Assembly (NCBI RefSeq): GCF_035285525.1
Contig: NZ_JAYKGW010000187.1
Location: 14,461 to 46,460, forward strand
Direction of reading: 5' to 3'
Length of the DNA stretch: 32,000 bases
Source: Okeania sp.
GTDB lineage: Bacteria; Cyanobacteriota; Cyanobacteriia; Cyanobacteriales; Microcoleaceae
Made by a program: the position numbers and the translations under genes. Numbering within the stretch: the stretch's first letter is position 1; each line of letters starts with the position of its first letter. A model generated the notes under the pieces. It searched no databases, had not been told where the DNA came from, and saw nothing but the letters and a program-made list of their open reading frames with translations. Positions 2-32,000 of the stretch are shown piece by piece.

Positions 2-1192
2 GACTATTATCGAGTCGATCCAATTTTAGGCGGTAATGAAGCTTTAAGAATATTAATAGATGCTGCTCACGCTCGGAATATAAAAATTGTTCTGGATGGA
101 GTTTTTAACCACGCTAGTCGGGGTTTCTATTTCTTCAACGATATTTTGGAAAACGGTCCTCATTCTCCCTGGTTACATTGGTTTAAAATAGAAGACTGGC
201 CTCTATCTGCTTATGATGGTAGTTTACCTGCTAATTATGTGGGATGGGTAGGCAACCGTGCTTTACCTGTATTCAATCACGATAATCCAGAAGTGAAAGA
301 ATATATTATGGAAATTGGGGAATATTGGTTAGAATTTGGTATTGATGGTTGGCGGTTGGATGTACCTGCTGAGGTGACGACTCCTGGGTTTTGGCAAGAA
401 TTTCGCGATCGCATCAAGGCTATTAACCCGGAAGCTTATATTGTGGGTGAAGTCTGGACTGACTGTGTACAATGGTTGGATGGTACTCAGTTTGATGGGG
501 TGATGAATTATTTATTTACTGGTCCGACTATTGCTTTTACGGCAGGCGATCGCGTAGATTTTGACCAAGTGAAAGGCCGTGACTATGTAGCTTATCCAGC
601 TATATCTGCTGCTGTTTATGGTCAAAAAATGCAGGAGTTGTTGCAACTATATCCTTGGGAAATTCAATTAACTCAACTTAATTTATTAGATAGTCACGAT
701 ACAGCTAGAGTTTTGAGTATTGCTCAAGGAGATAAAGCAAGTGTGGAATTAGCTACTTTATTATTGATGACTTTTCCGGGAGCGCCGAGTATTTATTATG
801 GTGATGAAGTAGGTTTACTAGGGAAGTTAGACCCTGACTGTCGTCGTGGTTTTCCTAATAATGAAAAATGGGATATTCAAGTTCTAGAATATCATAAAAA
901 ATTAATTGCTATTAGGAATAAATATTCTGCTTTGCGTACTGGTAATTATGAAGTTTTATTTGCGGAGGGAAATGTTTATATATTTGCTCGAATTTTAGGA
1001 AATGAAGAAATTATTATTGCCGTTAATATTGGTATAGAAAAAACTAAGGTAAATGTTAGTATTAATCAGCTAAAATCTCAACCTAATACAATTATTTATG
1101 GTAGTTGTGAAATTTTGCAAAGAGGAAATAAAGTTAGTCAATTAGAGTTAGATTTACCAGGAAGAAAAGGCTGTATTTTAATGAATAATTGA
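2..1192 (+). CDS. Glycoside hydrolase family 13 (alpha-amylase superfamily, neopullulanase/cyclomaltodextrinase-like); 5' end cut by window edge
   Basis: Frame 2 is open from base 2 (DYYRVDPILGGNEAL...), upstream of the ORF-track TTG at 146. All four GH13 signature regions are present: DGVFNH (I), GWRLDVPAEV (II, nucleophile Asp), IVGEVW (III, Glu), LLDSHDT (IV). Confidence 0.9.
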   Translation, partial: DYYRVDPILGGNEALRILIDAAHARNIKIVLDGVFNHASRGFYFFNDILENGPHSPWLHWFKIEDWPLSAYDGSLPANYVGWVGNRALPVFNHDNPEVKEYIMEIGEYWLEFGIDGWRLDVPAEVTTPGFWQEFRDRIKAINPEAYIVGEVWTDCVQWLDGTQFDGVMNYLFTGPTIAFTAGDRVDFDQVKGRDYVAYPAISAAVYGQKMQELLQLYPWEIQLTQLNLLDSHDTARVLSIAQGDKASVELATLLLMTFPGAPSIYYGDEVGLLGKLDPDCRRGFPNNEKWDIQVLEYHKKLIAIRNKYSALRTGNYEVLFAEGNVYIFARILGNEEIIIAVNIGIEKTKVNVSINQLKSQPNTIIYGSCEILQRGNKVSQLELDLPGRKGCILMNN

Positions 1193-3141: not shown

Positions 3142-3792
3142 TATCAATACAGTGCTTTCCTTTGCCCTTAGAGATTAGGGGAGGAGGAGAGTAGGGAGTA
3201 GGGGAGAGATTTAAACGCTAGTATTAACTTGAGAGATGCGACCTTTGCAAGACCCGTCAATGCCTGTGGGCGGAGTGCTGCCGACAGTTCCTGTGGAAAC
3301 AGGAAGTAAACATTAAAATCTCAGTTGTTCTTACGTTTTATATCGGTTTTATGAAGCAGAAATAAACTCGCGCGAGCAAGATGCACGGTTCCCGAAAAAT
3401 CGCACTATACTCCCTGGCTTTCTGGCTTGTACTACAAAACTTTCACCATTTACCTTGTACATCATTTGCCCGAAATATATATGTATAGATAATTTAGGGT
3501 TGGCGCTCAAAAGTTTGTTGGTGAAGGTAGGCAATAGGTATAGGGGCAATAGGCAATAGTGACAGACCTTAATTGTTCTAAATTTTTCCAAGTTTTGTGA
3601 TCAAAAATCTAGAGTTTTTCAGGTTAACTTAATAGTTTGTTGATACTTTATTATTACCAGAAAAAGCCTTTAAACTTTGTCTGTTAATGCTTTTATATTT
3701 AATCAGCAGAGCAATAATTTAGTCATCTTTAGATGACTTCAGCTATTAGCTAAAGATTAAAATCCTTGGCTTGGTGAGTTTGGCGGGCTTGG

Positions 3793-4605
3793 TTACGAAA
3801 GTATTTCAATTTCAATCCAGACTCCTGTTTTTTTAGTATTAGGAATATATTCAATAGTAAGCTTGGGAATACAACTCAGGCGATCGTCCTGAAGCACCCC
3901 CGCCCCATTTAATGTTAAAGCATCAAGACAGGCTCCTGCTAAATTATCTAAATCAGAATTAGTGCGATGTTTTCCACAAAAACTAATATAAATAGCTGCT
4001 CTTTTTATTGGTAAATTTATCTCTAAATTCAGTTCAGAAATTTGACGGTAAATTTCTACTTCTGCTTGATTTCTCCAGGCACGATATTGAGGTGGTAAAT
4101 AAGTACCATTAGCAGTAACTCGCGGACGTGCTTTAGGAACTACTTTCCCTGGAAGATAGAAATGAATTGTTGGAGAATTTTCAGATTCTTTAGATTTAAG
4201 GGGAGAAGTTGTATAATTCTTAGAATTATCCAAGGACAGAATATTTTTGTTAATTTGGGTCTCTAGTTTTTCTGGCAAATTATCTTTTGGCTCCAAAGTA
4301 GCAAATTGCATTTGATATTTATCCTCTGTAGCAGATAAATCAACTTTTCTATAAGTATCTAATTGTTTCCGGAAGCTAGGCCAACTTTTAGCTATTTGTA
4401 AATAAGTCTCTGCACAGTTGGTTGAGAAATGACAATTCTTTTGGAACCAAGTTTGCCATTCAGTAGGTGAAAATAAAGTTTTAATTTCTAATAATAATTG
4501 ACCCAAAGAATAAGCATAAGCCATAGAATTTTTTGGGTCATTTTGGCATTTTTGATGTTTGAAATTAATATCATTTATTAAGTTTTTCCAGTTAATTAAT
4601 ACCAT
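3793..4605 (-). CDS. RusA-family Holliday junction resolvase domain fused to a ~150-aa N-terminal domain of unknown function
   Basis: C-terminal ~120 aa: PGKVVPKARPRVTANGTYLPPQYRAWRNQAEV...SDLDNLAGACLDAL...VLQDDRL. This matches the RusA acidic catalytic cluster (DxDN ... DD). ATG start at 4605. Confidence 0.8.
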   Translation of the reverse strand: MVLINWKNLINDINFKHQKCQNDPKNSMAYAYSLGQLLLEIKTLFSPTEWQTWFQKNCHFSTNCAETYLQIAKSWPSFRKQLDTYRKVDLSATEDKYQMQFATLEPKDNLPEKLETQINKNILSLDNSKNYTTSPLKSKESENSPTIHFYLPGKVVPKARPRVTANGTYLPPQYRAWRNQAEVEIYRQISELNLEINLPIKRAAIYISFCGKHRTNSDLDNLAGACLDALTLNGAGVLQDDRLSCIPKLTIEYIPNTKKTGVWIEIEILS

Positions 4606-8447: not shown

Positions 8448-8842
8448 TTTTTGACTTTTATTTTTAATTTTTTTGACTAAAGTTATAGTAATTCTCAAAA
8501 AGAATGAGGTACAAAATTCCTAATTTTTAGGCAATAGGAAATAGGAATTATCGTTATGTGGGAATAGGAAAAAAACTGTACCTCAGTTACTTGAGAAACG
8601 TTATTATTTCGAGTTACTACTCATTTTTTATACTTTCTTAGATCGAGAATTTATCAATTATAATTCTCCTCTGAATTAAATGATTTTGTAAGCATTCAGC
8701 TATTATAGCAATCAGCAATGAGATGTGAGAAAAAAACTGTAGGGGTTTGGTCTCCAATTTCTCGGGAACCGTACCCAAGTGTTAAGGGATTTAGAAACCA
8801 AACCCCGCATTTATAAAATCTTACAACCTATTTCAGATTGCT

Positions 8843-8863
8843 ATAGCTGATAGCTGATAGCTG
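8843..8863. repeat. Heptamer array ATAGCTG x3
   Basis: atagctgatagctgatagctg read directly. Confidence 0.9.
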
Positions 8864-8983
8864 TTTCGCTTGCTTCGCTGCCCATTCATGTCGCGCAGCA
8901 TTCGGCAGGAAATGCTTACGTTATTTTTTATTCTATTTTTAATTAGGGCTGAATGATTAATTATAAAAACATTTATATCATCA

Positions 8984-9080
8984 GGACTTACGCAAAGGTA
9001 CTTACTATATCTATATGTAGATTTAAAAAACTATTTCGTAATAGTTTTAAGTACTATATCTAGGGTTGCTGCGTAAGTCC
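8984..9080. mobile_element. Small palindromic element (~97 bp) with GGACTTACGCA terminal inverted repeats
   Basis: ggacttacgcaaagg...ctgcgtaagtcc, with an internal 9-bp stem aaaactatt/aatagtttt. Solo ends of the same type at about 4743, 4815 and 4945. Confidence 0.6.
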
Positions 9081-9649
9081 CGATCATGTTCGTTTGAATA
9101 CTTAAACTTTGCAGGAAGTAAGGCACAAGACAGAAAGCAGAAGGAAAGAAAAGGTAACTATGGGAGAAATTTTTTTTTATAACTGATTATCTGAAAATGA
9201 TATTACAGGTAAAAGATTGATACTTCTTAGATTCGCAAAAAGTGCTAGATAAAGAGTTTAAAACCTGCAAAAAATTAGCATTTTAGACTAACTAAGGACA
9301 GAAAAATTGAGAGGCAATTATTACTCCTACTTTTTCTAAATTACCTGTTTGTCCTGACTCCTAACCCCTACCTCTACCACTCATACTTTCCATACGCAAA
9401 CCCTAATTACTTTTGACTTCCGTAAAATTGAATAACCCATAAAAAGAAGTATTCGAGCGGATGAAATATATCGTAACAAATAATCAGTTAGTTTTCAATA
9501 TTTCTTAATATTTGTCCAAATTTATTTAATCCTTTGTCATGTTATGGTAGTAACTATGTTAAAATTTTGATAATTAACAAAAACTATAACGTTATAGTTA
9601 TGACGGAATTATTAGTAAGTACAACGGAAGCACCTTTGAAAAACCTAGC

Positions 9650-9893
9650 CAATCCTAGACATTTTTAGGAATTGTCTCTTCATTGGTTGCAGATTAAGTC
9701 AAAACTGACTACGTTGGCAGGTCACGACCACTATAAGTGAACTCCAGCTTATATCCAGGTCGCTCTAAATTAAGGAAAGCGTTTAGTAGCGCCAATCGGA
9801 AGTAGGTTTTGTACCGATAGTGTTTAGAGTATGGACAAGCCTGGCCAACATAATCGAGGAACACTTTACTGAAAAGGACTAGACGCCAAAATG
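9650..9893 (+). ncRNA. Candidate omega-RNA (IscB guide-RNA scaffold); 5' boundary and guide not resolved
   Basis: Lies immediately upstream of and abutting the iscB start. About 44% GC by hand count over 9701-9860, against visibly lower GC in the flanks. Nested complementary segments: 9713-9721/9840-9849, 9724-9736/9748-9762, 9763-9769/9823-9829, 9795-9799/9814-9818, 9697-9701/9706-9710. Known IscB loci encode the omega-RNA in exactly this position. Confidence 0.55.
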
Positions 9894-11195
9894 TCTAACA
9901 CTAATTACGTTTTCGTCATAGATACAAACAAAAAACCATTGCCACCCTGTAAGCCAAGTGTAGCTCGTAGATTGTTAAATTCTGCTAGAGCTGCTGTATG
10001 GCGACGCTTTCCGTTTACTTTAATTCTCAAAAAAGCTGTAAAAAGAGTTACCAAAATAACTTTAGTTCTGAAAATTGACCCAGGCTCAAAATTCACAGGT
10101 ATGGCTTTATTAGAAGGAAATAAGGTGATATGGATGTTAGAAATTCAACATCGAGGTTCATTAATTTCCGAAAAACTGCAAAAGCGTTCTCAAAGAAGGA
10201 GAGCGAGAAGGACAAAAAATCTGAGATATCGTAAACCAGGATTACCTAATAAAAAGAAACATACTGGTTGGTTAGCACCTTCTCTCATGCACAGAGTTGA
10301 AACTACTATGACTTGGGTGAAACGATTAATGAAGTTTTGTCCTGTTCAATCAATCTCAATGGAGCTGGTTCGCTTTGATACTCAATTGATTCAAAATCCA
10401 GAAATTTCTGGCACTGAGTATCAGCAAGGGGAATTAGCAGGGTATGAGCTGAGAGAATATTTATTAGAAAAATGGGGTCGTCAATGTGCTTATTGTGGTC
10501 AAACTGATACGCCACTAGAGATAGAACATATTCGCCCTAAGTCAAAAGGAGGTTCAGACCGAGCATCTAACTTAACAGTGGCCTGTACTAAATGCAATCA
10601 ACTAAAGAGTAACCAAGATGTTAAGGACTTCTTATCTGGAAAACCAGAATTATTAAAGCGAATACAAACCCAAGCCAAATTGCCTTTAAAAGATGCAGCA
10701 GCGGTTAATTCTACTCGGTGGAAATTGTTCAATGCGTTAAAAACTACAGGTCTGGAAGTAACTACAGGTAGCGGGGGACAAACAAAATTTAACCGAAGAA
10801 AACATAAACTGCCAAAAGCGCACTGTATAGATGCTGCTTGTGTAGGTGAAGTTCGGGAGTTAAACTTTCATACTACCCAAGCTTTAGTTGCTATTTGCAA
10901 GGGGCAAGGAGGTAGACAGAAAGCAGCGGTAAATAAATATGGATACCCCATAAGGTACAACCCACTAAAACCGATAAAAGGTTGGAATAGTGGAGACTTA
11001 GCTTTGAATATGGAAACTGGAGTTGTAGGTAGAGTTAATCCTCGCTCAAAATCAAATAGTTTTAATTTCACAGTGCCTGGGCACAAAGCCAAAAGTGTTC
11101 ATGTAAGGAAATTAAAAATTGTACACAAGAAAGACGGTTATGCCTATACATTTAGTCCACAGTTGTCCATAGATGTCAAGGAAAATGCCGTCTAA
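9891..11195 (+). CDS. iscB: IscB, OMEGA-system RNA-guided DNA endonuclease (Cas9 ancestor-type)
   Basis: PLMP-type N-terminal domain (YVFVIDTNKKPLPPCKPSVARRLL...RRFPFTLIL). RuvC-I (LKIDPGSKFTGMA). Arg-rich bridge helix (RRRARRTKNLRYRKPGLPNKKKHTGWLAPSLMHR). RuvC-II (ISMELVRFD). HNH (CAYCG...LEIEHIRPKSKGGSDRASNLTVACTKCNQLKSN). RuvC-III (KAHCIDAACVG). 434 aa, a typical IscB size. Confidence 0.9.
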   Translation: MSNTNYVFVIDTNKKPLPPCKPSVARRLLNSARAAVWRRFPFTLILKKAVKRVTKITLVLKIDPGSKFTGMALLEGNKVIWMLEIQHRGSLISEKLQKRSQRRRARRTKNLRYRKPGLPNKKKHTGWLAPSLMHRVETTMTWVKRLMKFCPVQSISMELVRFDTQLIQNPEISGTEYQQGELAGYELREYLLEKWGRQCAYCGQTDTPLEIEHIRPKSKGGSDRASNLTVACTKCNQLKSNQDVKDFLSGKPELLKRIQTQAKLPLKDAAAVNSTRWKLFNALKTTGLEVTTGSGGQTKFNRRKHKLPKAHCIDAACVGEVRELNFHTTQALVAICKGQGGRQKAAVNKYGYPIRYNPLKPIKGWNSGDLALNMETGVVGRVNPRSKSNSFNFTVPGHKAKSVHVRKLKIVHKKDGYAYTFSPQLSIDVKENAV

Positions 11196-11327
11196 AACTT
11201 AACAGGTAGTCGTGGCCCTGAAGGAACTTGGAACAAAAATAAGCGTAAAGCGAATACTTTTGTTCACGTTCTACGCAAGACTATTGATTATAACAGAAAC
11301 AACGGAACTTCTCATCCTGCAATTGCC

Positions 11328-11615
11328 GTGAAAGTCGGAAATAAAAAGGATTATTGTCACGCTTTGAAAATTCACGGACCCTGCGTAATAGTCTATCAAC
11401 CCCATCAACCCAATACAAGTCAAGCTGGGGGAGCGCGCTTGTGGATGGAAGTTGAACCGCAACATAGAGTAGAGCGAGTATATTTTTCCGATGGAGATTA
11501 TGGTCTGCCTCCAGAAGTGGTTCAGCAAAGACAGACATTTAAAAAGAAGAAATCAAAAGTCAAAAAGGGAAAACTGAAACCGAAGGGTAAGAAGGGTAAT
11601 AAAAGAAGAAATTAA
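11328..11615 (+). CDS. Hypothetical protein with Lys-rich C-terminal tail (possibly N-terminally truncated)
   Basis: GTG-initiated ORF. The frame is open back to 11196 and is the same frame as iscB. Non-low-complexity core (DYCHALKIHGPCVIVYQP...GGARLWMEVEP) followed by KKKKSKVKKGKLKPKGKKGNKRRN. Confidence 0.35.
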   Translation: MKVGNKKDYCHALKIHGPCVIVYQPHQPNTSQAGGARLWMEVEPQHRVERVYFSDGDYGLPPEVVQQRQTFKKKKSKVKKGKLKPKGKKGNKRRN

Positions 11616-12053
11616 ATAATTTATACAAATAATTAGTCTGAGAAAGAAGATTTTTGAGCAGTGTCTATTTTCTGTTCTATTTTTTGCTGTCTAATTTTGA
11701 CGGCTTATAATAAAGAGGTAGCGATCGCCAAAATAATTATCAATTTTATACTTCATTTTATGTTTTACCTTACGAAGTTAATAATTCTAGTTAAGAAATA
11801 ATTTTAAAGAAGCAAAAATCCCAGAGCATAACTATATTGTTTAGTCTGGAAATGTCAAAGGAGCCGACTTTTTGCATCTAAAATATTGAGATATTAATAT
11901 TCAAAGCCAAAAGTTTTACCTACTGCTAAAATTTGATAATTGATGTTTTAATTTCAACTTGCTCTGTTGATTCTGAATTGTCTAGTAAAAAATCACCAAG
12001 CATGATCGCTACCTCATAGTAGTTCTAAGGATCAGATAGAATAGACCACTAAA

Positions 12054-15778: not shown

Positions 15779-16630
15779 ATGAAAGGAATTGTCCGCAAAA
15801 CTAGCAGGGTTAGCAATTGGTTGACCAAGGTAAATATTCATTGGTTAGTTAACTTAAACCTATTATTCACATTAGTAAGAAGAGATTTAGAAGCTAGATA
15901 TAAAGGCTCAGTTTTAGGCAACTTATGGCCACTACTTAATCAACTATCTCAACTTTTAATTTATACTTATGTCTTCTCGATTATTCTGAAAGTTAAGCTT
16001 GACCTCAAAGGATTACCAGCAGATAGTAAACTAACATTTGGATTATGGTTATTTGCTGGATTAATACCTTGGTTAGCTTTTACGAGTGGATTGACTCAAG
16101 CTTCTGGTTCTGTAATTACACAGCCTAATTTAGTTAAAAAATTAGTTTTTCCCCTTAGTTTATTACCCTTAGTTCCGATTCTTTCAACATTTATAGAAAG
16201 TACATTTGGATTAATAGCTTTAATAGTAATGTTTTATATATCATCTGGGGCAATAAATCAAACATTATTCCTGTTACCTTTAGTGGTTATACCTCAACTT
16301 TTATTAACAACAGGTTTAGGATATTTTACTGCTGGATTAACGGTATTTTTGCGAGATATTCCACAGACTTTAGGAGTAATTATTAATCTTTGGTTTTATG
16401 TTACGCCAATAGTATATCCGGCATCAGTAATTCCAGAAAATTGGCGAATTTGGGTGTTTTGGTTTAATCCTTTAACAGCGATCGCTGAAGTATATCGTGA
16501 CTTGGTTTTAGTAGGAGAAATTAAGCATTGGGGAGAGTTAGGAATTTCGGCTTTGATATCTCTACTAATTTTTTATTTTGGCTGGTGGGTTTATCAAAAA
16601 TTACGTCCTGCTTTTGCTGATGTTTTATAA
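15779..16630 (+). CDS. ABC-2 type polysaccharide export permease (Wzm/TagG/KpsM family)
   Basis: N-terminal RDLEARYKGSVLGNLWPLLNQL signature followed by six hydrophobic helices. It sits upstream of a Wzt-type ATPase. Confidence 0.9.
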   Translation: MKGIVRKTSRVSNWLTKVNIHWLVNLNLLFTLVRRDLEARYKGSVLGNLWPLLNQLSQLLIYTYVFSIILKVKLDLKGLPADSKLTFGLWLFAGLIPWLAFTSGLTQASGSVITQPNLVKKLVFPLSLLPLVPILSTFIESTFGLIALIVMFYISSGAINQTLFLLPLVVIPQLLLTTGLGYFTAGLTVFLRDIPQTLGVIINLWFYVTPIVYPASVIPENWRIWVFWFNPLTAIAEVYRDLVLVGEIKHWGELGISALISLLIFYFGWWVYQKLRPAFADVL

Positions 16631-16697
16631 GAAGTAAGAAGGAAGAAGGAAGAAGGAAGGAGGAAGGAGGAAGAAGGAAGGAGGAAGAAGGAAGAAG
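16631..16697. repeat. Purine-only heptamer array (GAAGGAA/GGAGGAA, about 9 units) starting right after the wzm-like stop
   Basis: gaagtaagaaggaagaaggaagaaggaaggaggaaggaggaagaaggaaggaggaagaaggaagaag has period 7. Pyrimidine-strand relatives at 1890-1935, 19590-19615, 19800-19820. Confidence 0.9.
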
Positions 16698-17173
16698 TCA
16701 ATAATTAATAATTACCAAAAAATGAGGTATAAAGCCTCCTCTTTGAAGGAGATGAAAAAATATTTAACACGGTTCCCGATAAATCAGTATTTCCAGCCTT
16801 CGACTTTAGTCGGAGCTTCGCTGATAACTGATAACTGAAATGACCTCTTCTTATAAAGAAAATGATTAGCTAAAAGGATTTTTTTCTTATTTATCCATGA
16901 ATGGAGAGACTTTATACTTTAATTTTTTCGTAAGAAGAAAGAAGGAAGAAATATTCAAAAAAAATTTAAAATTATGTACATCTCCAATGTAATTACTCCC
17001 CCTACCTAACTCCTAAATTCTAATTGGTATCGAAATCTTAGAACTTAAAAATCATTGATAAATTATAATAAAAAACTCTAATATGCTGAAAAATATAAGT
17101 AATTAATATGCAGGATTTTCCAAGTATTAAATGAATATTTAGCTTGACTAAAAGATACTAATTTTGGATTCAG

Positions 17174-17354
17174 TAATTAAGGCTTGCTGATTAAATATCA
17201 AAGCATTTATAGATAAAGGTTTGAACAATAAAAGTAAGGCTCAATTATGAATTAACAGTTATTCTAGAACTCCTCTAAATCCTAACTCTTAACTACTCCT
17301 TACTCCCTACTCCCTACCATAGCAAAAAGATTTTCCATAAGCAAACCCTAATTA
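17174..17354. mobile_element. MITE-like element (~181 bp), type-2 end + type-1 end, inside the wzm-wzt spacer
   Basis: Left end taattaaggcttgctgattaaatatcaaagcatttatagataaagg. Right end ctccctactccctaccatagcaaaaagattttccataagcaaaccctaatta. Confidence 0.7.
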
Positions 17355-17676
17355 ATAATTACTCTTAAAAAAATTGAGTATTAGTTCGGAGTGACTTATT
17401 TTCTTTTTTTCTCCCTAAAAAGAGAAGCTTTAAACCTTAAAACTTTGGTATATTTGTATTTTTCCTAGATTTTTAAATTGCTTTTTCCTGCTCCATTCTG
17501 AAATAGCTGATGACCTAATACTTATGAAAAAAGATTAATTTTTGACAAATTGAATATATAATATATACTACTAAATTTCCCTTTTATTTCCTGGGTTATG
17601 TTCCGCAAACATAATTTCACTTCTTGGAGATTAATTCCTCCTTCGATGTGATAATTAAGTTAATAACTAATAGCTG

Positions 17677-19089
17677 ATGGCTGATAGCTTATATATAAAA
17701 TCCATGATGCCTGAAACTGTAATTTCACTACAAAATGTTTCTAAATGTTTTAAGCGATATCCACATCCTGTAGATCGTTTAAAAGAAATTTTACTGCCTG
17801 GAAAAAGTCGTGCTGATGAATTTTGGGCAGTGCAAAATATAAACATAGAAATAGAAAGAGGACATACTTTAGGAATTGTAGGGCGGAATGGTTCAGGAAA
17901 AAGTACCCTTTTACAAATAATTGTTGGTACTTTAACACCAACAATAGGAAAAGTAAAAGTTCAAGGCAGAATTTCTGCTCTATTAGAACTTGGTAGTGGA
18001 TTTAATCCGGAATTTACAGGCAGGCAAAATGTTTTTTTTAATGCTCAGTTACTAGGATTAAAAATACCAGAAATTGAAGCAAAATTTGACCAAATTGCTA
18101 GTTTTGCTGATATTGGTGATTTTATTGACCAACCTGTAAAAACATATTCTAGTGGAATGTTTGTTAGATTAGGATTTGCTGTAGCTACCAGTGTAGAACC
18201 AGATATTTTAGTTGTTGATGAAGCACTTTCTGTAGGAGACGAAGCATTTCAAAGAAAATGTTTTGCTCGTATTCAAGACATTCAAGAAAGAGGAGGAACA
18301 ATATTATTTGTCTCTCATGCTGCTTCCACAGTTGTGCAACTTTGTGATTCAGCAATTTTGATGGATAATGGGGAAATGTTACTTTATCATACTCCTAAAT
18401 ATGTGGTTTCTAAATATCAGAAACTAATCTATGCTTTTCCTGATAAAGTTCCCTCCATTAGAGAAGAAATTCGCCAAATTCCTGATTTAACTATTCACGA
18501 TTTTTTTGATGATGAGGAGACAAATGAATCTACATCTAAATCTCAAGAAAATAGTGAAAATCAAAGTAAAGATAGGATTGCAGAAGCAACAGAATATGAA
18601 GAAATTTATGACCCAGAAATGATACCTTCAAATACTATACGTTATCCTGATAAAGGAGCAGAAATTATTGACCCCCATATTATTACTTTGGATGGTAAAA
18701 GAGTAAATCATTTAATTAATCGTCGGGAATATTACTACACATATAGAGTAAAATTTATTAATTCTACATCTAAAGTTAGGTTTGGAATGTTGATCAAAAC
18801 TCTTAGTGGTTTTGAGTTAGGAGGAGCGTCTTTACATAGTTCTACTAAATCTGTAGAATATGTTGCAGCTCAACAAATAGCTATAGTTAAATTTAAGTTT
18901 AAATGTTTACTAAATCCTGGTGTATATTTTTTAAATGCTGGAGTTGTGGGAATGGCAGACGATCATCTAACATATTTATCTCGTTGTATTGACATAGCTA
19001 TGTTTAGAGTGCAACATTGTAGTGATTCATCCGGTACGGGTGTGGTTGACTTTTTGATAGAACCTAGATTAATAATTAATAATGGATAA
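17677..19089 (+). CDS. Polysaccharide ABC exporter ATP-binding protein (Wzt/TagH type) with ~190-aa C-terminal extension
   Basis: Walker A GIVGRNGSGKSTLLQII, signature YSSGMFVRLGFA, Walker B ILVVDEALSVGD, H-loop FVSH. The C-terminal part (DKGAEIIDPHIITLDG...VYFLNAGV...FRVQ) looks like the Wzt C-terminal beta-sandwich. The ATG at 17677 lies inside a heptamer array; the ATGATG at 17704 (MMPETVISLQNVSK) is an alternative start. Confidence 0.9.
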   Translation: MADSLYIKSMMPETVISLQNVSKCFKRYPHPVDRLKEILLPGKSRADEFWAVQNINIEIERGHTLGIVGRNGSGKSTLLQIIVGTLTPTIGKVKVQGRISALLELGSGFNPEFTGRQNVFFNAQLLGLKIPEIEAKFDQIASFADIGDFIDQPVKTYSSGMFVRLGFAVATSVEPDILVVDEALSVGDEAFQRKCFARIQDIQERGGTILFVSHAASTVVQLCDSAILMDNGEMLLYHTPKYVVSKYQKLIYAFPDKVPSIREEIRQIPDLTIHDFFDDEETNESTSKSQENSENQSKDRIAEATEYEEIYDPEMIPSNTIRYPDKGAEIIDPHIITLDGKRVNHLINRREYYYTYRVKFINSTSKVRFGMLIKTLSGFELGGASLHSSTKSVEYVAAQQIAIVKFKFKCLLNPGVYFLNAGVVGMADDHLTYLSRCIDIAMFRVQHCSDSSGTGVVDFLIEPRLIINNG

Positions 19090-19372
19090 TGAAAAGTGTA
19101 TCTAATTATCAATTATTAATTACCTTTAGTTAAAGCCGATAGAATTGAATTAATTATGGAAATATTATTTCTTTTTTTTATGAAAAGGAAAGGTTTTAAA
19201 CCTCTGGAGATTAATTATAGAAATCAACTCTTATGTTGTCATAATTCAAAAACTAGAAATAAATTTTTAAACTCTTACCAATTGACCAAAAAAACTTGGG
19301 TAGTTACGCCTCTTCAAATAAGAGGATAAAAAAAGAAGGCTCGGTATTTAAAGCCTCCTTATTCCACAATAT

Positions 19373-19400
19373 ACTAATAACTAATAACTGATAACTGAAA
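19373..19400. repeat. Heptamer array TAATAAC/TGATAAC ending in CTGAAATAACC
   Basis: Direct reading. The same terminal motif closes the arrays at 16821-16845 and 29364-29431. Confidence 0.9.
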
Positions 19401-19765
19401 TAACCATTACCTACAGAAATATTCTTAAAAAGCTGTAAGATTATAGACACAAATAAAATAGAATTTCTAGATCAATTATCTATTAGTAAGTAGTGTAATT
19501 TTTTTCATTGTATATAATACTTTAAAATTCACCTACTTATTAAAGTCTACTATCGAAAAACTTGAGGTATTTGTTTGTTTACTAAATACCTTCTTTCTTT
19601 TTCCTTCTTCCGTAACCATTCAGCTATTCCTACGGAATGCGCTCGCATTCAGCAATAAGACCCTATGTTAAAGATAGGTTTTAAGTGAATATAGACTTTA
19701 GAGCTGACTTTATAGTAAAATTTTTTTAGCTTAATTAAGAGAGCTTTTATCACTTACTAAAAGCA

Positions 19766-19799
19766 ATAGCTGATAGCTGATGGCTGATGGCTGAATGCT
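19766..19799. repeat. Heptamer array ATAGCTG x2 / ATGGCTG x2
   Basis: atagctgatagctgatggctgatggctgaatgct read directly. A similar mixed array at 17664-17690 overlaps the annotated wzt-like start. Confidence 0.9.
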
Positions 19800-19832
19800 T
19801 ACCTTCTTCTTTCTTCCTTAAAATCTAAAAAT

Positions 19833-22685
19833 ATGAACACTGAAAAAATAGATTTCAATCATAAGTTAATTATAGATAATTTTCTTCAAGACCAAACTAC
19901 CAAACCGGAAATAATTAACATAAAAATTCATCCACAAGATGAAATGTATCTCTATGCTTTGAAAAATACAGATGGGAAAAAAGAAGAAGCTCTACTACGA
20001 TATTTTTCTAATGGCAAAAGAATTTTTGATGCAGTTAAACAAATTGTAGAATGGTATTTTAATGGTTTTGAAAATATCTCTTCTTTTTTAGATTTTGCTA
20101 GTGGTTATGGGCGTTTTAGTAGATTTTTGGTTCAGGAAATACCGACTAATAAAATATGGGTTTCAGATATTTATTCTGAAGCAGTAGAATTTCAAAAACA
20201 AGAGTTTGGTTTTGATGGGATAGCTTCAACTACTGCTCCTGAAGATTATCAAATAAATCAGAAGTTTGACTGCATTTTTGCTTGTTCTTTCTTTAGTCAT
20301 ATTCCTCAAAAAACTTTTGCTAGTTGGTTAGAAAAGTTATATAGTTGTTTAACTGAAAATGGCATATTAATATTCAGTACCCATGATTTATCTTTGATGA
20401 CTATAGAGACAGATATAGAGGCAGAAGAAATTTATTTTACTCCAGAAAGTGAAAGTCTTTTTCTGAATACTGAAGATTATGGAGTTACTTATGTGGGAGG
20501 AAAATGGGTAGGTAAAATAATTGAAAAAGTGACTCAGGGAAAAGCAAAATGGCATCGAATTAAAAAAGGTCTTTGTGGATTCCATGATTTATATATTATT
20601 GGGAAGGAGGAATTCTTTATAAATTCAAAAGTTAAAAGTCAGGATTCAAAAGTTGGAAAGGAAGAAGTATTAATAAATTCAGAAGTTAAAAGTCAGGATT
20701 CAAAAGTTGGAAAGGAAGAAGTATTAATAAATTCAGAAGCAAAAATAGAAGCAGAAGTAGAAAGTAATCAGTTAGAAGTATTTATAAATTCGGAAGAATT
20801 AGCAGAAAATAATCAGTCAGAATTATCTCTAAATTTAGAAATTAGGAAGGAAAAAGTTTGGGAACAAATAGATGAATTATTAAACTTTCATTGTCATCCT
20901 GATGGAGGTTGCCAAAAATTTGAAATTACAGCTACAGGGGAACTTTATTTAGAGGGATGGGCAGCAGATATTAATCAAGAAGAAAAGGTAGAAAAAATTT
21001 CAGTTTTAATCAATGGAAAAGAAGTAGTAAGCTGTTTACCTAAACCTGAAATTAAGAATAAAAAATATCAATGGTCATCTACTATTAAGAGTGAATATCT
21101 ATCACCAAATAACATTATCCTAGTAAAAATTATTAATAACTTCCATTTTGAACGAGTAGTTAATATTTCTCCTATTAATACCATTGCATTACTTCCACCA
21201 AGTCATCTGTTATTAAGAATAAGTGGTAACCCTAGTGTTAAAGCTTTTATTAGTTCATTTGATGATCTTAGACATACAATAAAAAATTACCTTCAAACCG
21301 CAGGATTTGATTTTAATCAATTTGAAAATATACTAGATTTCGGCTGTGGAGTCGGACGTTATTTAATGGCGTTTCAACCTGAACTTTTGCCTAATCAAAA
21401 ATTATTTGGTTGTGACGTTTTTCCCGAATGTGCTGAATGGTGTCAAGAAAATATTAAGTTTGCTACGGTTAAACGTAACGATATTCAACCACCTTTACCT
21501 TTTGAAAATAATCAGTTTGATTTAATTAATTCTATTTCAGTATTTACTCATCTAAGTATAGATTTACAACATCTTTGGGCTTGGGAAGTTTATCGAGTTT
21601 TGCGACCTGGGGGAATATTATTTATGACTCTTCACGGACCTCAATTTTTCCCAGTAGTTTATGATATTTTTCTGACTGGAAATGCTCATAAAGCGGAAAT
21701 GTATAGTATTGGTGAAGAGGGATTATTTTTATATCTTGACCATGAGGGAGAAAGAGATGGTCAAGGTCAAAATACTATTGCAGCAGTTCATACACCTGCT
21801 GCTTATCAAGAAATATTTTCTATGTTTAAACACATTAAAAGATTTCCTCAAAGTAATTTGGCAAATGGGCAAGATTTATATATTTTACAAAAGCCAATTT
21901 CTGGTACTTTGGTTGCTCAACCTCTGAATGTGAAGTCAAAGTTCAAAAGTCAAAATTCAAAAGTTAGAAGTAAGAAGTTAGAAGTTCAGAATTTTGAGAA
22001 TAAAGAAGATTTGGCAAAGACTCAGGAAGAAATAATCGGAAATATTGACTCAGATGTGATAACTCAAAAGTTGGAAGTTGACAATTTTGAGAAGGAGGAG
22101 AAAGTTGGAAATGTCGAAGAAGAAATAATGGGAAATATTGACTCCGAAGTGACAACTCAGAAGTTGGAAGTTGACAATTTTGACAATAAGGAGAAAGTTG
22201 CAAATGTCGAGGAGGAAATAATCGGACAAAATATAGAAGAGGAAAAAATTCTCATATCTGATAATAGAGAAACTCAAAATTTGTCGGAAGTGCCAAAAGT
22301 ACCTTTGTCTAGTGATGGAAAAATTGAAAATTTATCAGAGCAAACATTGTCTGAAAGTTATCACTCTCAAACTGAGATGAAGTTTCAATTACAAGGTCAA
22401 AAAATATTCCGAGTTTATCCACAAATTGAACCTATGGGAAATTATTCTCTTGCTTCTAAAATTGAAATTATTGACAGCAAAAACGAAGAAATTTTAGTGC
22501 AAAAAACTATTCCTTTAAATAATAAAAAAATATTTGGTAAAACTAACTATGGAGTGATACAAATAGAAATTCCTGAATACTCAGGAGAAGTAATTGTCAG
22601 ATTAAAAACTTTCATTACTGACTGGATTAATTTACCACTAGAACAAGAAGTATTAGTATATTGGAATTTTGCCAATTTTGCTTAG
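19833..22685 (+). CDS. Double class-I SAM-dependent methyltransferase protein with repeat linkers (950 aa)
   Basis: Two motif-I/post-I sets: LDFASGYGRFSRFL...FDCIFACSFFSHI...NGILIFSTH and ILDFGCGVGRYLMAF...FDLINSISVFTHL...PGGILFMTLHG. They are separated by tandem-repeat low-complexity linkers and a GW-containing beta-rich module. Confidence 0.8.
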   Translation: MNTEKIDFNHKLIIDNFLQDQTTKPEIINIKIHPQDEMYLYALKNTDGKKEEALLRYFSNGKRIFDAVKQIVEWYFNGFENISSFLDFASGYGRFSRFLVQEIPTNKIWVSDIYSEAVEFQKQEFGFDGIASTTAPEDYQINQKFDCIFACSFFSHIPQKTFASWLEKLYSCLTENGILIFSTHDLSLMTIETDIEAEEIYFTPESESLFLNTEDYGVTYVGGKWVGKIIEKVTQGKAKWHRIKKGLCGFHDLYIIGKEEFFINSKVKSQDSKVGKEEVLINSEVKSQDSKVGKEEVLINSEAKIEAEVESNQLEVFINSEELAENNQSELSLNLEIRKEKVWEQIDELLNFHCHPDGGCQKFEITATGELYLEGWAADINQEEKVEKISVLINGKEVVSCLPKPEIKNKKYQWSSTIKSEYLSPNNIILVKIINNFHFERVVNISPINTIALLPPSHLLLRISGNPSVKAFISSFDDLRHTIKNYLQTAGFDFNQFENILDFGCGVGRYLMAFQPELLPNQKLFGCDVFPECAEWCQENIKFATVKRNDIQPPLPFENNQFDLINSISVFTHLSIDLQHLWAWEVYRVLRPGGILFMTLHGPQFFPVVYDIFLTGNAHKAEMYSIGEEGLFLYLDHEGERDGQGQNTIAAVHTPAAYQEIFSMFKHIKRFPQSNLANGQDLYILQKPISGTLVAQPLNVKSKFKSQNSKVRSKKLEVQNFENKEDLAKTQEEIIGNIDSDVITQKLEVDNFEKEEKVGNVEEEIMGNIDSEVTTQKLEVDNFDNKEKVANVEEEIIGQNIEEEKILISDNRETQNLSEVPKVPLSSDGKIENLSEQTLSESYHSQTEMKFQLQGQKIFRVYPQIEPMGNYSLASKIEIIDSKNEEILVQKTIPLNNKKIFGKTNYGVIQIEIPEYSGEVIVRLKTFITDWINLPLEQEVLVYWNFANFA

Positions 22686-22814
22686 AAAAAGCTTTTAGCT
22701 ATCAGCATTCAGCGGTCATCAAGATTATTTTTTTTAAGGTTAGTAAAGGATATTTCAATCTAAGTTAAGGGCGAATATCCATGATATATAGTTAACATTA
22801 AGGAGAAAAATTAC

Positions 22815-25800
22815 ATGAAATCAACAGTTTTAATTATTACAGGAATGCACCGTTCGGGAACTTCTTTAACTGCTTCTTTATTTCAGAGTGTAGGAGTAAA
22901 TATTGGGGAGAAATTAATTGGTCCTGAATATGGAAATATTAGAGGGCATTTTGAAGATATTGAGTTTGTTGAACTACATAAACAAATCTTGCGATCGCAA
23001 CATATTGATGAGTTGGGTAGCAATGTGGAAATTTCTGAAATTCCGGTTAAAGATGAATATTTGGAAGCAGCAAAAAGACTGATAGAAAATTGTCAAGTAA
23101 AAAATGAGAAAGTAAATAAATTTTGGGGATGGAAAGACCCGAGAACTACATTATTTTTAAGTTTTTGGTTGCGGTTATTGCCTGATGCTAAGTTTATTTT
23201 TGTTTATCGTTCCCCTTGGGAAGTTGTAGATTCTCTTTATCGTCGAGGTACTGATAAAAAGTTATTGGAACAACCAGAGTTAGCTGTGAAAATGTGGTGG
23301 GATTATAATCGGAGAATATTGGATTTTTATCAACAATTTTCGGCACAATGTTTAATTGGAAAAGTTGATACTATTGGCAAAAATTCTGAGGGTTTTATTG
23401 AAGCAGTTAATGAAAAATTTGAAATTGATTTGTCAGCGCCTCCCCCTGGGAATTTTACTGAATCTTTATTGGTGAAAGATATTAGTAAAACTACTAAACC
23501 TGGTTTGATAGAAAGATATTTTCCAGAAGCTTTAGAGGTTTATAAGGAATTAGAAAAAATTGGTGTGGAAGAAGGAGTCAGCAGCTTTTATGAAGTTAGA
23601 CTTCAGAAATTAGAAGTCGGTAGTGAAGTGTCTAAAGTTAAAGATGAAAATTTAGGTACTAAAAATTGGGAAGTCGGTAGTGGAGAGTCTAAAGTTAAAG
23701 CTGAAAAAGTGGGAAGTCAGAAATTAGAAGTTGGTAGTGAAGTGTCAGAAGTTAAAGATGAAAAGTTCGGTACTCAAAATTGGGAAGTCGGTAGTGAAGT
23801 GTCAGAAGTTAAAGCTGAAAAATTAGGTACTAAAAATTGGGAAGTCGGTAGTGAAGAGTCTAAAGTTAAAGATGAAAAGTTCGGTACTAAAAATTGGGAA
23901 GTCGGTAGTGGAGAGTCTAAAGTTAAAGCTGAAAAAGTGGGAAGTCAGAAATTAGAAGTTGGTAGTGAAGTGTCTAAAGTTAAAGATGAAAAAGTGGGAA
24001 GTCAAAATTTAGAAGTCGGTAGTGAAGAGTCTAAAGTTAAAGCTGAAAAATTAGGTACTAAAAATTTAGAAGTAGGTAGTGAAGAGTCAGAAATTGAAAC
24101 TAAATCAGAATTATGGGAATTTCGAGATTGGTTAAATATTCGGAGGTTAGAAAAACAAAATAATCTTTTAGAAAAACAAATTAATAGTTTAGAAACAGAT
24201 GTAGAAAGATGGAGAGAAATATTTCGAGAAGCACAACAGAAAGTAGGAAATTTAGAAACAGAATTAGGAGAAACTCAACAACAACTTGATAATAGAACAA
24301 TCAAACTTCAAGAGTCTGGTAAAAAATTAGAACTACTTGAAACAGAATTAGGTAAAACTCAAGTTCAACTTGAAGCTAGAGAAACAAATTTACAAGCATC
24401 TCAAACTAAAGTAGTTACATTAGAAAAAAAATTAGGGCAGACTCAATCTCAACTAGAAAATAATCAAATTAAATTACAACAGTCTCAAACAAAAATCTTT
24501 ATATTAGAAACAGACTTTGGGAAAACTCAGGCAGAACTTGATAACTCAAAAACTAAATTTAAAGAAGCATTAACTAAAATATCTAATTTAGAAACAAATT
24601 TAGGAGAAACTCAACTTCAACTAGATGGTACTCAAATTAAATTAACTGAGTCTCAGGAAAAAATTGGAATATTAGAAACTGATTTAGGAGAAACTCAAAA
24701 TCAACTTCAGAATCAAGTTCAGACAAATAAAATTCAATTAGGAGAATCTCAGGAAAAAATTGGAATATTAGAAACAAAATTAGGAGAAACTCAAATTACT
24801 CTCGAAGAAACCAAAGCAGAAATTTTAGCTATGAAATCTTCTAAGTTTTGGAAACTTCGAGAAAAGTGGTTTAGTTGGAAAGGGAAAATAAAAAAGGTTC
24901 TGAGAAGTTTACAACCGCGCTTCGTTTTTTCCATCGACTCTCCTATTAATTGGAAATTTTATAATTCTCAAATAGAAATAGTTGGTTGGTGTTTCCACAA
25001 TACTCTCGACATCCAAAATATTCGCGCCAAAATAGGAACAGAAATTTTTCTTGGTAATTATGGCATTCCACGAAAGGATGTTGCTCAACTTTATGAAGAA
25101 GTAAAAATTCAAAATTCAAAAGTAAAAATTCAAAAGTTAGAGATTGGAAGTAATGAGTTAGAAAATGAAGAAGTCGGAAGTAAAAAGTCAAATAATACCT
25201 CGACTCTAGAAAATTGTGGTTTGGAAATTTCTGCACAACTTTCTTCAGGAAATTATCAGTTAATTCTGGAAGCGGAGGATAAAAAGGGTAAGTGGCAAAA
25301 ATTTGCGAGTTATCCTATATCGGTATCTACTGTTGAGGCAAATTTTGATGCTCCGACAAATTGGGAACAACGGGAGGGAATAATTTTCTTTGCTGGTTGG
25401 TGTTGTCATCCAGAACAGAAAATTACTAAGTTAGTTTTAAAATGTGGGGGTATTTCTGTAGATTGTGCTTATGGTTTGCGTCGGAAAGATGTGGGGGAAG
25501 TTTTTCCAGATTGGGTGGGAAGTGAGTATAGTGGGTTTGAAGTAACTGTGGAAGTTCCATCGGGAAAATGGGAAGTTAGTTTAGAAGCATATTTGGAAAA
25601 TGGGGAAGTGGTAGGTTTTTCTTGTCAAGAAATTTTCAAACTAAAACGTTATAGTTTCTGGGATAAAACTCAGGATAAATTTCAAGATTTATATAAATTT
25701 AGTCAAGCTCTTCAGAAACGAGTTGCCGAAAGAAAACAAAGATTAGGTCGCATTTTACCTTTACCTTCAGAAATACCTAATATTGTCAGACAAATATTAA

Positions 25801-28800
25801 CTATATATAGAGAGCAACAAAAATTGGAGGGAGAATTATTACCTCCCCCTGAGTTTGTTTTGCCAGAAACTATAGATGTTTATGATGCTTGGTTAGCAGT
25901 AAATAAATGGGGCGATCGCTCTCGTCAATATTTAATGTCTCGTTTGGAAAGTTGTCGGACTGCTTTACCGAAAATTTCTGTGGTGATGCCTGTTTATAAT
26001 CCACCCCTAGAATTTTTGCGCAAGGGAATAGCCAGTGTACAAAACCAAGTATATCAAAATTGGGAATTTTGTATAGCGGATGATTGTAGTAGTAATTCGG
26101 ATGTTCGAGAAATTTTGACGGAAATAGCTCAGACTGACTCTCGGATTAAATTAATATTCCGTTCCGAAAATGGAAATATTAGTGCTGCGACTAATTCTGC
26201 TGCGGAACTTGCTACGGGAGATTTTATTCTTTTTATGGATAATGATGATGAACTTACTCCGGATGCTTTAGGAGAAGTTGCTCTATATATAAGTGAAAAT
26301 CCAGAGACGGATTTTCTTTATTCGGACGACGATAAAATTACTACGGAAGGGAAAAGATTCGCTCCTCAATTTAAACCAGAATATTCTCCAGAGTTGTTAC
26401 TTTCTTATATGTATATGGGGCATTTATGTGTAGTGAGAAAGGAAATTTTTGACAAAGTTGGAGGTTTAAGAATTGGTTTTGAAGGTTCTCAAGATTATGA
26501 TTTTGCTTTAAGAGCAACGGAATTTTCTCGTCATGTCGGACATCTACCTTTAGTATTATATCATTGGCGAACTTCTCCTGGTTCGACTGCTATTTCGGGG
26601 GGGGAAAAACCAAAGAGTTTTCTAGCAGGTGAAAAAGCAGTTCAAGAAAGTTTAATTCGTCGAGGTATAGCAGGAAAGGTTGCTCAACCAGATTGGGCAA
26701 TACGAGAAAATTTAGGAATTTTTAAACCTACTTTTCCTGATCAAGGTGATTCGGTGACTATTATTATTCCGACGAAAAATCAAGCTAAGTTATTGAAGGC
26801 TTGTATTGAGTCTTTGCAAAAGACAACTTATCAGAATTATCAAGTTTTTGTGATTGATAATGAAAGTGATGAGTCAGAGAGTTTAGAGTATTTGGCAAGT
26901 TTAAAAGATTTATTTTTAGGTGAAGCAAATGTATCGGTTTTGCCAATTCCTAATAATGATGGAAAGTTTAATTTTGCTGCCATAAATAATCGTGCTGTTG
27001 AGAGGGCAAAAACTGAATATATTTTATTTTTAAATAATGATACGGAGGTGATTTCTTCTAACTGGTTAAGTCAGATGATGGGTTATGCAAAAATTCCTGG
27101 AGTCGGAACAGTCGGAGCTAAATTAATTTATCCCGATCAAAGGATTCAACACGCTGGTGTGATTCATGGTTTACATCATGGTTTAGCAGGTCATGCTTTT
27201 AAATTATTATATAGTGAAAATAGGGGTTATCTTTCTCAAGCATTTGTGTCAAGAAATTATTCGGCAGTAACGGCAGCTTGTATGTTAACTCCTCGGAAAT
27301 TATTTTTAGATAATGGTGGTTTTGATGAGGAAAATTTTGCTGTTGCTTATAATGATGCAGATTATGGTTATCGACTTTTAAGAAGTGGTTATCGTTCGGT
27401 TTATTGTCCTGATGCTGAGTTGATTCATAAGGAAGGAACGAGTCGTGGTTATTCTGATAATCCTCAAGAGGAGGCAAATTATCGTCGGAAGTATTCTAGG
27501 ATGATAGATGGTTTTTATAGTCCTCATTTTTCTCTAGAAAGTGAGTTATTTGAAATTAAACCGAGAAGATATTTCATTGAAATTGAAAAGTCAAAATTCA
27601 CAAGTAAAAAATTAGAAAATTCTTCAAAAGAGTCAGAATTAAATTCTCAAACATTAGAGGAAAATTCTGCTAATGAACCAGAAATAGATGTTCAGACAAA
27701 AGTTGATAATCTGCCCAAAGATTCTCAAATAAATAGTCAGACAAAATTTGATATTTCTCAAAAAGAGTCAGAATTAAATTCTCAAACATTAGAGGAAAAT
27801 TCTCCTAATGAACTAGAAATAAATGTTCATAAAAAAGTTGATAATCTTCCCAAAGATTCCCAAATAAATAGTCAGACAAAATTTGATATTTCTCAAAAAG
27901 AGTCAGAATTAAACTCTCAAGCAAGAGACTGCCTGTTCCCTCATACAAACATTAAAATATTGATGTGTAGTAATTCCTTAGACTTAACTGGTGCACCACT
28001 TCATCAATTAGAAATTGCCCTAAAATTAGCCAAAGACGGAATTATTGAACCAATAATATTTTGTGTCAGCGATGGGGAACTTCGAGAAATTTATCAACAA
28101 CAAAATATTCAAGTAATTGTTAAAGAAAACCCCCTAGAACATATCTATCAAATAGATGCTTATAACGCAGCCTTAACCACCTTTGCTGAACAAATAAAAT
28201 CTCTAAATATTGATGTTATGTATATCAACACTTTAGAAAACTTTTTCATGGTAGATGTCGCTCAAATGTTAAACATTCCTAGTGTTTGGAATGTGCATGA
28301 AAGTCAACCTTGGCAAACATATTTTAATCGTTTTGGAAACGAGATAGCTGCCAGAGCATTAGAATGTTTCCGTTATCCTTATCGGATAATTTTTGTTGCT
28401 GATGCTACTCGAAATAGATACCTTCCTTTAAATAGTCATCATAACTTTACCGTCCTTCATAATGGATTAGATTTAGAACTATTAAAAAAAGCAGCAACTA
28501 AATGGTCTAGAAAAGAAGCAAGGTCAACTTTAGGAGTACAAAAAGATGAAATAGTTATTCTCTTATTAGGTACTGTCTGCGAAAGAAAAGGTCAACATGA
28601 TTTAGTAAAATCTCTATCATTTATTCCAGAAAAAGAAATAGAAAAAATCAAATGTTTTATAGTAGGTGATCGCCCGAATCTTTATAGTTTAAAATTACAT
28701 GAACTTGTCAAAAATTTGCCAGAAGAAGTTCAGAAAAAAGTAGAAATAGTAGGAGAAACTCCTGATACGGCAAAATATTATCAAGCAGCAGATATATTTG

Positions 28801-31874: not shown

Positions 31875-31933
31875 AAAAAAAGCCCTCTAGCCAAAATTGA
31901 CCAAGGGACTATAACTATCAGGGTGCATCTACT
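31875..31933 (-). ncRNA. Candidate ~60-nt sRNA, copy 2 of a tandem pair
   Basis: Minus strand: TATACT (31940-31945), a 6-nt spacer, AGTAGATGCACCCTGATAGTTAT, an imperfect hairpin (AGTCCCTTGGTC...GGCTAGAGGGCT), then T9. Confidence 0.4.
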
Positions 31934-32000
31934 AAAATTAGTATAGCTTAAACTAGGGGGTAAAACCCCTCACTTAGTTATATTTATTAATTATAAAAAA

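Follow-up and report, generated by a model that had tools for sequence, protein, structure and literature searches.

A probable non-autonomous ISC-type transposon with an omega RNA gene and an open iscB in an interrupted gene of Okeania sp.

Reports of IscB-omega RNA elements that lack TnpA date back to 2016 and 2021, and HEARO is the RNA that is now known as the IscB omega RNA. In such elements, the omega RNA abuts the transposon right end (RE), the guide corresponds to the flank beyond it, and the target-adjacent motif (TAM) abuts the left end (LE), past iscB (Meers et al. 2023). Published IscB TAMs are TTCAT, NWRRNA, and NAC (Meers et al. 2023, among others), and the ISC transposons were described as non-autonomous in 2016 (PMC4810608). 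Here, we discuss an iscB locus in a 32-kb stretch of DNA from Okeania sp. (referred to as the window; positions are those of the window). Positions 9631-11202 are very probably a single copy of an ISC-type transposon (IS200/IS605 superfamily) that is non-autonomous and carries only an omega RNA gene and iscB. The basis for this assignment is the protein and RNA family, the intact catalytic residues, the exact ends, the spread in multiple copies, the target motif, the interruption of a host gene, and the selection acting on the protein. The coordinates of the features are collected in Table 1.

A sequence-only reading of this DNA had proposed a stand-alone IscB nuclease behind a structured leader, and every motif that it quoted is present in the translation of the single long open reading frame (ORF) at 9891-11195 (+). 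The domains follow each other in the order PLMP-type N-terminal domain (the motif reads PLPP), RuvC-I, Arg-rich bridge helix, RuvC-II, HNH, RuvC-III, and C-terminal domain; that is, the RuvC fold is split by the inserted HNH as in IscB. The NCBIfam equivalog NF040563 ["RNA-guided endonuclease IscB" (guided_IscB)] is matched end to end, with model positions 1-314 corresponding to residues 7-319 and 446.9 bits relative to a curated cutoff of 175. Moreover, Pfam RRXRR (PF14239) matches residues 7-180 (1.3e-65), and three Pfam HNH models match residues 199-242 (HNH, 2e-12). The NCBIfam models for Cas9d (1.1e-15) and cas_Csn1 (1.5e-4) give weak matches, both far under their own cutoffs. In a phmmer search of the PDB sequences, TbaIscB, HfmIscB, OgeuIscB, and other IscBs rank first (4.6e-39 to 1e-22), followed by Cas9d-like proteins and IsrB. 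RefSeq lists the identical protein under the name "RNA-guided endonuclease IscB [Okeania sp.]" (MEB3342679.1 / WP_324238111.1). The RuvB encoded in the window likewise has 100% identity to an Okeania protein at NCBI.

The residues expected to act in catalysis had been taken to be intact, and an alignment of 47 family members bears this out. The RuvC residues D63 (RuvC-I), E158 (RuvC-II), and H311/D314 (RuvC-III) are invariant, as are the HNH residues and zinc ligands C199/C202/H213/N227/C232/C235/N236. An AlphaFold2 model built on this alignment has a mean predicted local distance difference test (pLDDT) value of 81.9 and a predicted template modeling (pTM) score of 0.75, and its overall fold, including the N- and C-terminal domains, is that of the solved IscBs. 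In a Foldseek search of the PDB, the ten top-ranking structures all represent IscB or IsrB bound to omega RNA and target DNA, aligned over ~430-630 columns; 8CSZ (7e-23), 9LIQ, 9NVU, 7XHT, 7UTN, and 9K30 are the leading ones (E-values 7e-23 to 6e-17). The C-terminal ~115 residues (320-434) are highly conserved within the family and might constitute the TAM-interacting domain.

Directly 5′ of iscB, on the same strand, a HEARO-type RNA ends at the transposon end, which is the arrangement of the OMEGA systems. In a search of positions 8800-11700 (2.9 kb) in E-value mode, Rfam HEARO (RF02033) matches 9648-9869 on the + strand over the full model (positions 1-211) with 59.7 bits (E-value 6.5e-11). 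In the family, a 17-nt 5′ extension, CACCUUUGAAAAACCUA, precedes the first HEARO helix. When the 260 nt 5′ of iscB from 28 copies were aligned, RNAalifold predicted 63 pairs, 12 of which show two-sided changes that preserve pairing. Column shuffles gave 6.5 +/- 1.6 such pairs (none of 500 reached 12), and structures slid by 1-3 columns gave 0-2. Collectively, homology and covariation indicate that the upstream omega RNA is real. With the HEARO model, family copies reach 42-69 bits, as compared with 137-164 bits for other IscB loci of cyanobacteria. A score below the Rfam threshold is a trait of the whole Okeania/Trichodesmium/Dapis family and not of the window copy alone, and since every family copy is sub-threshold, default Rfam annotation misses this RNA. 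A second HEARO, of the canonical type (157 bits), is present on contig L004 at 226-443 (- strand), on the strand opposite to the divergent HEARO; two IscB families thus coexist on that contig.

Table 1. Features of the element and its immediate flanks in the window. Slashes in sequences, here and in the text, mark junctions.
Feature	Position	Strand	Basis
5′ remnant of host gene, first 10 codons	9601..9630	+	Gapless alignment to the start of the 185-aa Dapis gene, to ...ACAGAAG/CAG
Predicted guide GTAAGTACAACGGAAG, host flank directly 5′ of the element end	9615..9630	+	Copy comparison and IscB analogy
Omega RNA scaffold, divergent HEARO-type	9631..9875 (3′ limit approximate)	+	Rfam match, covariation
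Shine-Dalgarno-like AAGGA	9874..9878	+	12 nt 5′ of the iscB ATG; invariant in the 28-copy alignment
iscB coding sequence, 434 aa	9891..11195	+	ORF call, only long ORF there; profile, alignment, and fold matches
LE (canonical IS200/IS605 orientation), within and just past the iscB 3′ end	11132..11202	+	Boundary conserved in >20 copies
CAG, target-derived, abutting LE; predicted TnpA target (CTG on the canonical strand) and predicted TAM	11203..11205	+	
3′ part of host gene, residues ~58-185, with Lys-rich tail	11203..11615	+	83% aa identity; synteny with L081 12095-12582

A scan of one genome per species for relatives yielded 79 loci (related loci are cited below by L numbers). The closest relatives (83-91% protein identity) are from Okeania, Trichodesmium, Dapis, and Microcoleaceae metagenome-assembled genomes (MAGs), often with several per genome. 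The sequence-only reading had suggested blastn to find other copies and the ends, and a recurrent unit with sharp ends was indeed found in the related loci. Approximately 30 copies or fragments in the Okeania, Trichodesmium, Dapis, and Microcoleaceae genomes share the ends 9631 and 11205; in ~20 full-length copies, homology to the window starts at 9628-9631 and ends at 11204-11208. The aligned ends, CACCTTTGAAAAACC... and ...AAAACTTAACAG, are identical in >20 copies, while the flanks are unrelated between copies (the left flanks all differ). Such varied flanks contradict a distribution of all copies at orthologous positions, as would be expected without transposition. Hence, as in IS200/IS605 (ISC) elements, the ends are defined without terminal inverted repeats or target-site duplication, and a short motif adjoins them. 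Internal-deletion derivatives (L062, L065, and L076-L079, the last four representing one orthologous site in four Okeania genomes) retain the omega RNA and both ends. Near LE, where the last inserted bases read ...AAAACTTAA, there is a subterminal inverted repeat, AGACGG (11132-11137) and CCGTCT (11188-11193). Near RE, sister copies have a CCTTTGA/TCAAAGG candidate stem (the slash here separating its two arms), which is weakened in the window copy. Single-stranded DNA folds of both ends on both strands gave no hairpin better than shuffled sequence, and the LE hairpin is not significant.

Three unoccupied sites already contain the CAG that follows the element. L048 (Dapis) provides an empty site that is collinear with both flanks of L065; it reads ...ATATAG CAG TCGAAG, and the occupied L065 site reads ...ATATAG/CACC...TTAA/CAG TCGAAG. 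In the intact Dapis locus L081, the right junction corresponds to ...GTTATAC/CAG GTAGTCG and the left junction to ...ACAGAAG/CAG CATTTC (the CAG of site 2 is found also in L043 and L063). Since these three empty sites already carry CAG, positions 11203-11205 are assigned to target DNA, and the inserted DNA is 9631-11202, a 1.57-kb unit comprising iscB and the omega RNA gene. CAG terminates about 21 of 23 copies, with no conservation 3′ of it. The comparison of sites predicts N/CAG as the insertion site and 5′-CAG, 3′ of the protospacer, as the TAM. A TAM outside the conserved block was considered and rejected, since there is no conservation past 11205 and the empty sites already have CAG. The predicted guide, for which a length of 16 nt was assumed from characterized IscBs, occurs once in the window and has no other match there; the intact Dapis allele differs from it at two positions. 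The element itself starts with CAC, and an occupied site is therefore one base off a cleavable site. A similar one-base distinction of the occupied site has been described for other IS605-family elements (Meers et al. 2023).

The interrupted gene is intact in Dapis BLCC M126 (L081 12185-12742, - strand), where it encodes 185 aa and the locus is without the element. The gene order in L081 is that of the window: a HlyD-like gene, a small gene, and ruvB. In addition, from the element end onward, the flank at 11203 has 83% aa identity to residues 58-166 of a 188-aa protein in L043 (an Okeania SIO3I5 paralog). The host protein has a weak N-terminal HTH_17 signal and a Lys-rich C-terminus. In the window, this gene lacks an in-frame stretch of 132 bp (44 codons, comprising the helix-turn-helix part) that is bounded exactly by two CAG sites. 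The loss might have arisen by recombination between two copies at neighboring CAG sites, or by a one-ended TnpA reaction in which RE was joined to a target motif close by. Insertion into an already deleted allele is less economical, as both ends of the deletion would have to be at CAG. The element and the host gene have the same orientation, which fits the reported orientation bias whereby host transcription feeds the omega RNA (Meers et al. 2023). Paralogs of the interrupted helix-turn-helix-like gene are found a few kb at most from IscB copies in L043, L010, L063, L024, and L006.

This assignment of the left flank bears on the leader as it was originally drawn, from 9582. An RNA is supported by the HEARO match and the covariation, but its start at 9582 is not, since the conserved element begins at 9631; 9582-9630 is host flank, a palindrome followed by the remnant start of the interrupted gene. 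The palindrome (AACTATAAC/GTTATAGTT, the slash marking its center) is a perfect 18-bp one at 9582-9599, just 5′ of the start codon of the remnant. It is host DNA of which Dapis keeps only the right half, and the start coordinate originally given for the leader falls there.

In the mechanism that we infer from the literature for expression, RNA-guided cleavage, TAM recognition, mobilization by TnpA, and a role in homing, transcription would enter from the left. A simple sigma-70-type scan gave no + strand promoter just 5′ of 9631, and the omega RNA would probably be transcribed from the co-oriented promoter of the host gene. The transcript would consist of the ~16-nt flank-derived guide (9615-9630) fused to the scaffold (9631 to ~9875). 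IscB would bind this RNA and search for guide-matching DNA with the predicted TAM, 5′-CAG, directly 3′ of it. Cleavage of the target strand would then fall to HNH and that of the opposite strand to RuvC. A perfect target would exist only in the same site without the element, i.e., either the donor joint left after excision by a Y1 TnpA or an unoccupied sister chromosome. The occupied site would be spared, because the guide match there precedes CAC and not CAG. Homologous repair off the occupied copy would restore the element and thereby promote its retention and spread, while moves to new N/CAG sites would need Y1 TnpA in trans.

As stated in the sequence-only reading, the 32-kb window has no Y1 (TnpA) ORF: Pfam identified no Y1_Tnp among those window ORFs that do not overlap and have at least 75 aa, and a tblastn search with an IS608-type TnpA gave no match in the window and one fragment, in L009. 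This absence is the norm for iscB; only ~1.5% of iscB genes are near tnpA (Meers et al. 2023). In Okeania SIO3B5 (L009), a Y1_Tnp fragment (35.7 bits, Pfam) and a TnpB zinc-ribbon fragment are located 1.4 kb from a sister copy, and the metagenome contig L080 has an OrfB_IS605 (TnpB) fragment (9874-10218) right after ruvB. These fragments suggest that IS200/IS605 machinery exists, or has existed, in the lineage, and the region 3′ of ruvB seems to attract insertions of the IS200/IS605 family.

Several findings weigh against an ISC-type transposon that is still functional in all its parts. The HEARO score is under the Rfam gathering score of 83, and at the Rfam gathering thresholds no HEARO is found in the window, where a distant NsiR1 is the sole match. 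By minimum free energy, the leader (9560-9895) folds no better than shuffled sequences do (z -0.48). Since thermodynamic stability is uninformative here, the evidence for structure is homology and covariation. Moreover, the window copy, alone among the 28, has TTCATTGG in place of the invariant TCAAAGG (~9679-9686), a private 3-nt change by which two to three predicted pairs are lost and a helix, predicted from invariant sequence, is weakened, while the other omega RNA helices are intact; the change might impair the omega RNA or the recognition of RE. The 3-nt TAM, derived from insertion sites only, is shorter than the published IscB TAMs. Finally, no intact TnpA was seen in the window or in the related loci that were retrieved, and present-day mobility is thus putative.

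The change in the omega RNA, together with the lack of TnpA in the window, bears on the alternative that survives best, namely that the ORF is open in a copy that is dead, either because the genome has no compatible TnpA or because of the private omega RNA change. Decay is common among the relatives: 12 of the 17 full-length ones are frameshifted and 5 are open (429-435 codons). The 434-codon ORF in the window, on the other hand, is free of defects and has all its catalytic residues, and the rest of the omega RNA helices are preserved. Comparison of the window iscB with the five intact copies gave nonsynonymous (dN) and synonymous (dS) divergences of 0.055-0.078 and 0.46-0.87, respectively, and dN/dS ratios of 0.09-0.15, which means that the lineage leading to the window copy has been under purifying selection at the protein level. 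In addition, TnpA normally acts in trans from elsewhere (Meers et al. 2023; PMC4810608). On balance, we consider an inactive relic rather unlikely.

Several of the frameshifts are common to different genomes. The shared +1 frameshifts comprise an extra base near codon 19 and the change from CTCAAAAAAGC to CTCACGCAAAGC near codon 47 (equivalent to ~9945-10035 in the window), and copies with shared frameshifts include L008-L010, L026, L027, L029, L031, and L053. Programmed recoding at codons 27 and 51, where sister copies have stops, was rejected, since the +1 frameshifts are followed by many more stops. Copies with an already broken iscB seem to have continued to spread, presumably with help in trans, although the shared frameshifts may in part be assembly artefacts in the MAGs. 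This raises a broader, and so far speculative, possibility. The intact window copy might be one of a few "master" iscB genes that serve a larger population of frameshifted and protein-less copies in trans, each with a conserved omega RNA and its own flank-derived guide. The copies would then form a dispersed multi-guide network centered on one nuclease, with an unusually short 3-nt TAM (CAG), in which the 132-bp loss records an element-mediated deletion or a one-ended TnpA reaction.

The sequence-only reading had left a choice between a non-autonomous copy and a domesticated nuclease. The former is backed by the recurrent ends, the interrupted gene, and the decayed sister copies, while the latter, in which the host would keep IscB and its omega RNA (e.g., for defense or regulation) with a fixed guide against another locus, is unsupported and seems very improbable. 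An intact ORF under purifying selection and the lack of TnpA in cis would be compatible with domestication. The unit, however, is multi-copy with transposon-like ends and variable flanks, and it disrupts a host gene at a locus whose syntenic counterpart in Dapis is without it. The guide of each copy differs, being merely its flank, and that of the window copy has no further match in the window. That the protein is an ordinary HNH endonuclease (group II intron, phage, or McrA type), without RuvC fold or guide RNA, is excluded for practical purposes by the RRXRR match, the end-to-end IscB equivalog, the invariant acidic and histidine residues of RuvC-I, II, and III, the IscB complexes as whole-protein fold matches, and the HEARO RNA upstream of the ORF, even though some sources label relatives "HNH endonuclease" or "McrA" and there are weak HNH-only matches to retron HNH proteins and to maturases of group II introns. 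The non-autonomous ISC-type transposon is thus the reading that we favor.

Other features were noted in the window and in the related loci. A short interspersed repeat at 8985-9206, ~430 nt 5′ of the element, recurs in L027 (8326-8456), L070 (1486-1613), and L009 (~3590-3650); all of these are in other Okeania loci, close to IscB copies. An inverted repeat, GGACTTACGCA...TGCGTAAGTCC (~8985-9082), adjoins the interspersed repeat, which may be a miniature inverted-repeat transposable element or a structured RNA. The upstream intergenic region also has a tandem heptamer, GCTGATA, in ~3 units (~8841-8863). An ORF at 29455-30312 (+) encodes a transposase of the PD-(D/E)XK nuclease family (PDDEXK_2, 7.8e-51), an unrelated mobile or recombination-promoting gene. 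A 270-aa ORF at 3793-4605 (-), which carries a RusA Holliday-junction resolvase domain at its C-terminus and matches DUF3102 weakly, may be a prophage remnant. Positions 15779-29171 (+) are occupied by a polysaccharide export/modification cluster that includes a Wzm/Wzt-type ABC transporter, a 950-aa double methyltransferase, and a 2118-aa multi-domain sulfotransferase/glycosyltransferase; the cluster is syntenic in Dapis (L081) and in the JGI metagenome contig L080. The NsiR1 (nitrogen stress-induced RNA 1) match is at 31875-31934 (-), with 47.6 bits relative to a gathering score of 39. NsiR1 has been described in heterocyst-forming cyanobacteria, and a match in Okeania is hence unexpected.

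The kind of element discussed here is already known and the protein is already annotated as IscB in RefSeq. What is specific to this locus is the divergent HEARO variant, the predicted 3-nt TAM, the 132-bp deletion in the host gene, and the predominance of decayed copies. The value of the locus is accordingly modest. It adds a compact 434-aa IscB family of marine filamentous cyanobacteria and an omega RNA variant below the Rfam HEARO threshold, and the predicted, very short CAG TAM would be attractive for genome editing if confirmed. It also offers a natural example of a guide programmed against the intact allele of the disrupted gene, with an intact syntenic allele for comparison.

With respect to the ISC transposons, as they appear in the available text of Kapitonov, Makarova, and Koonin (2016; PMC4810608), the element agrees in size (1.3-1.7 kb), in having IscB as its only product, and in having neither terminal inverted repeats nor target-site duplication. 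It is likewise inserted directly 5′ of a short motif on the iscB-sense strand, present in multiple copies in cyanobacteria (filamentous and other ones for the ISC transposons), and probably dependent on a Y1 transposase in trans. The motif, N/CAG, differs from the N/ATGA, GT/GG, or GT/RA given for ISC transposons, and the Okeania/Trichodesmium/Dapis family is not among the ISC families named in that text.

Relative to OgeuIscB (7XHT, 7UTN, 8CSZ) and GstIscB (Meers et al. 2023), the domain order is the same, and the locus shares with both the upstream HEARO-type omega RNA, the lack of tnpA in cis, and, as predicted here, the 5′ guide outside RE and the TAM abutting LE. Fold alignments with the solved IscBs give only ~17-22% identity, and the protein has 434 aa compared with the 496 aa of OgeuIscB. 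The omega RNA shares the main helices of Rfam HEARO along model positions 1-211 and the location directly 5′ of an HNH/IscB ORF. It differs from the model in its 17-nt 5′ extension and in a 35-nt segment where the model has 12 nt. Finally, the RuvC-HNH-RuvC core and the bridge helix are shared with Cas9 of type II CRISPR systems, including Cas9d. Unlike Cas9, there is no recognition (REC) lobe, no CRISPR array, and no cas1/cas2, and a single guide is set by the insertion site.

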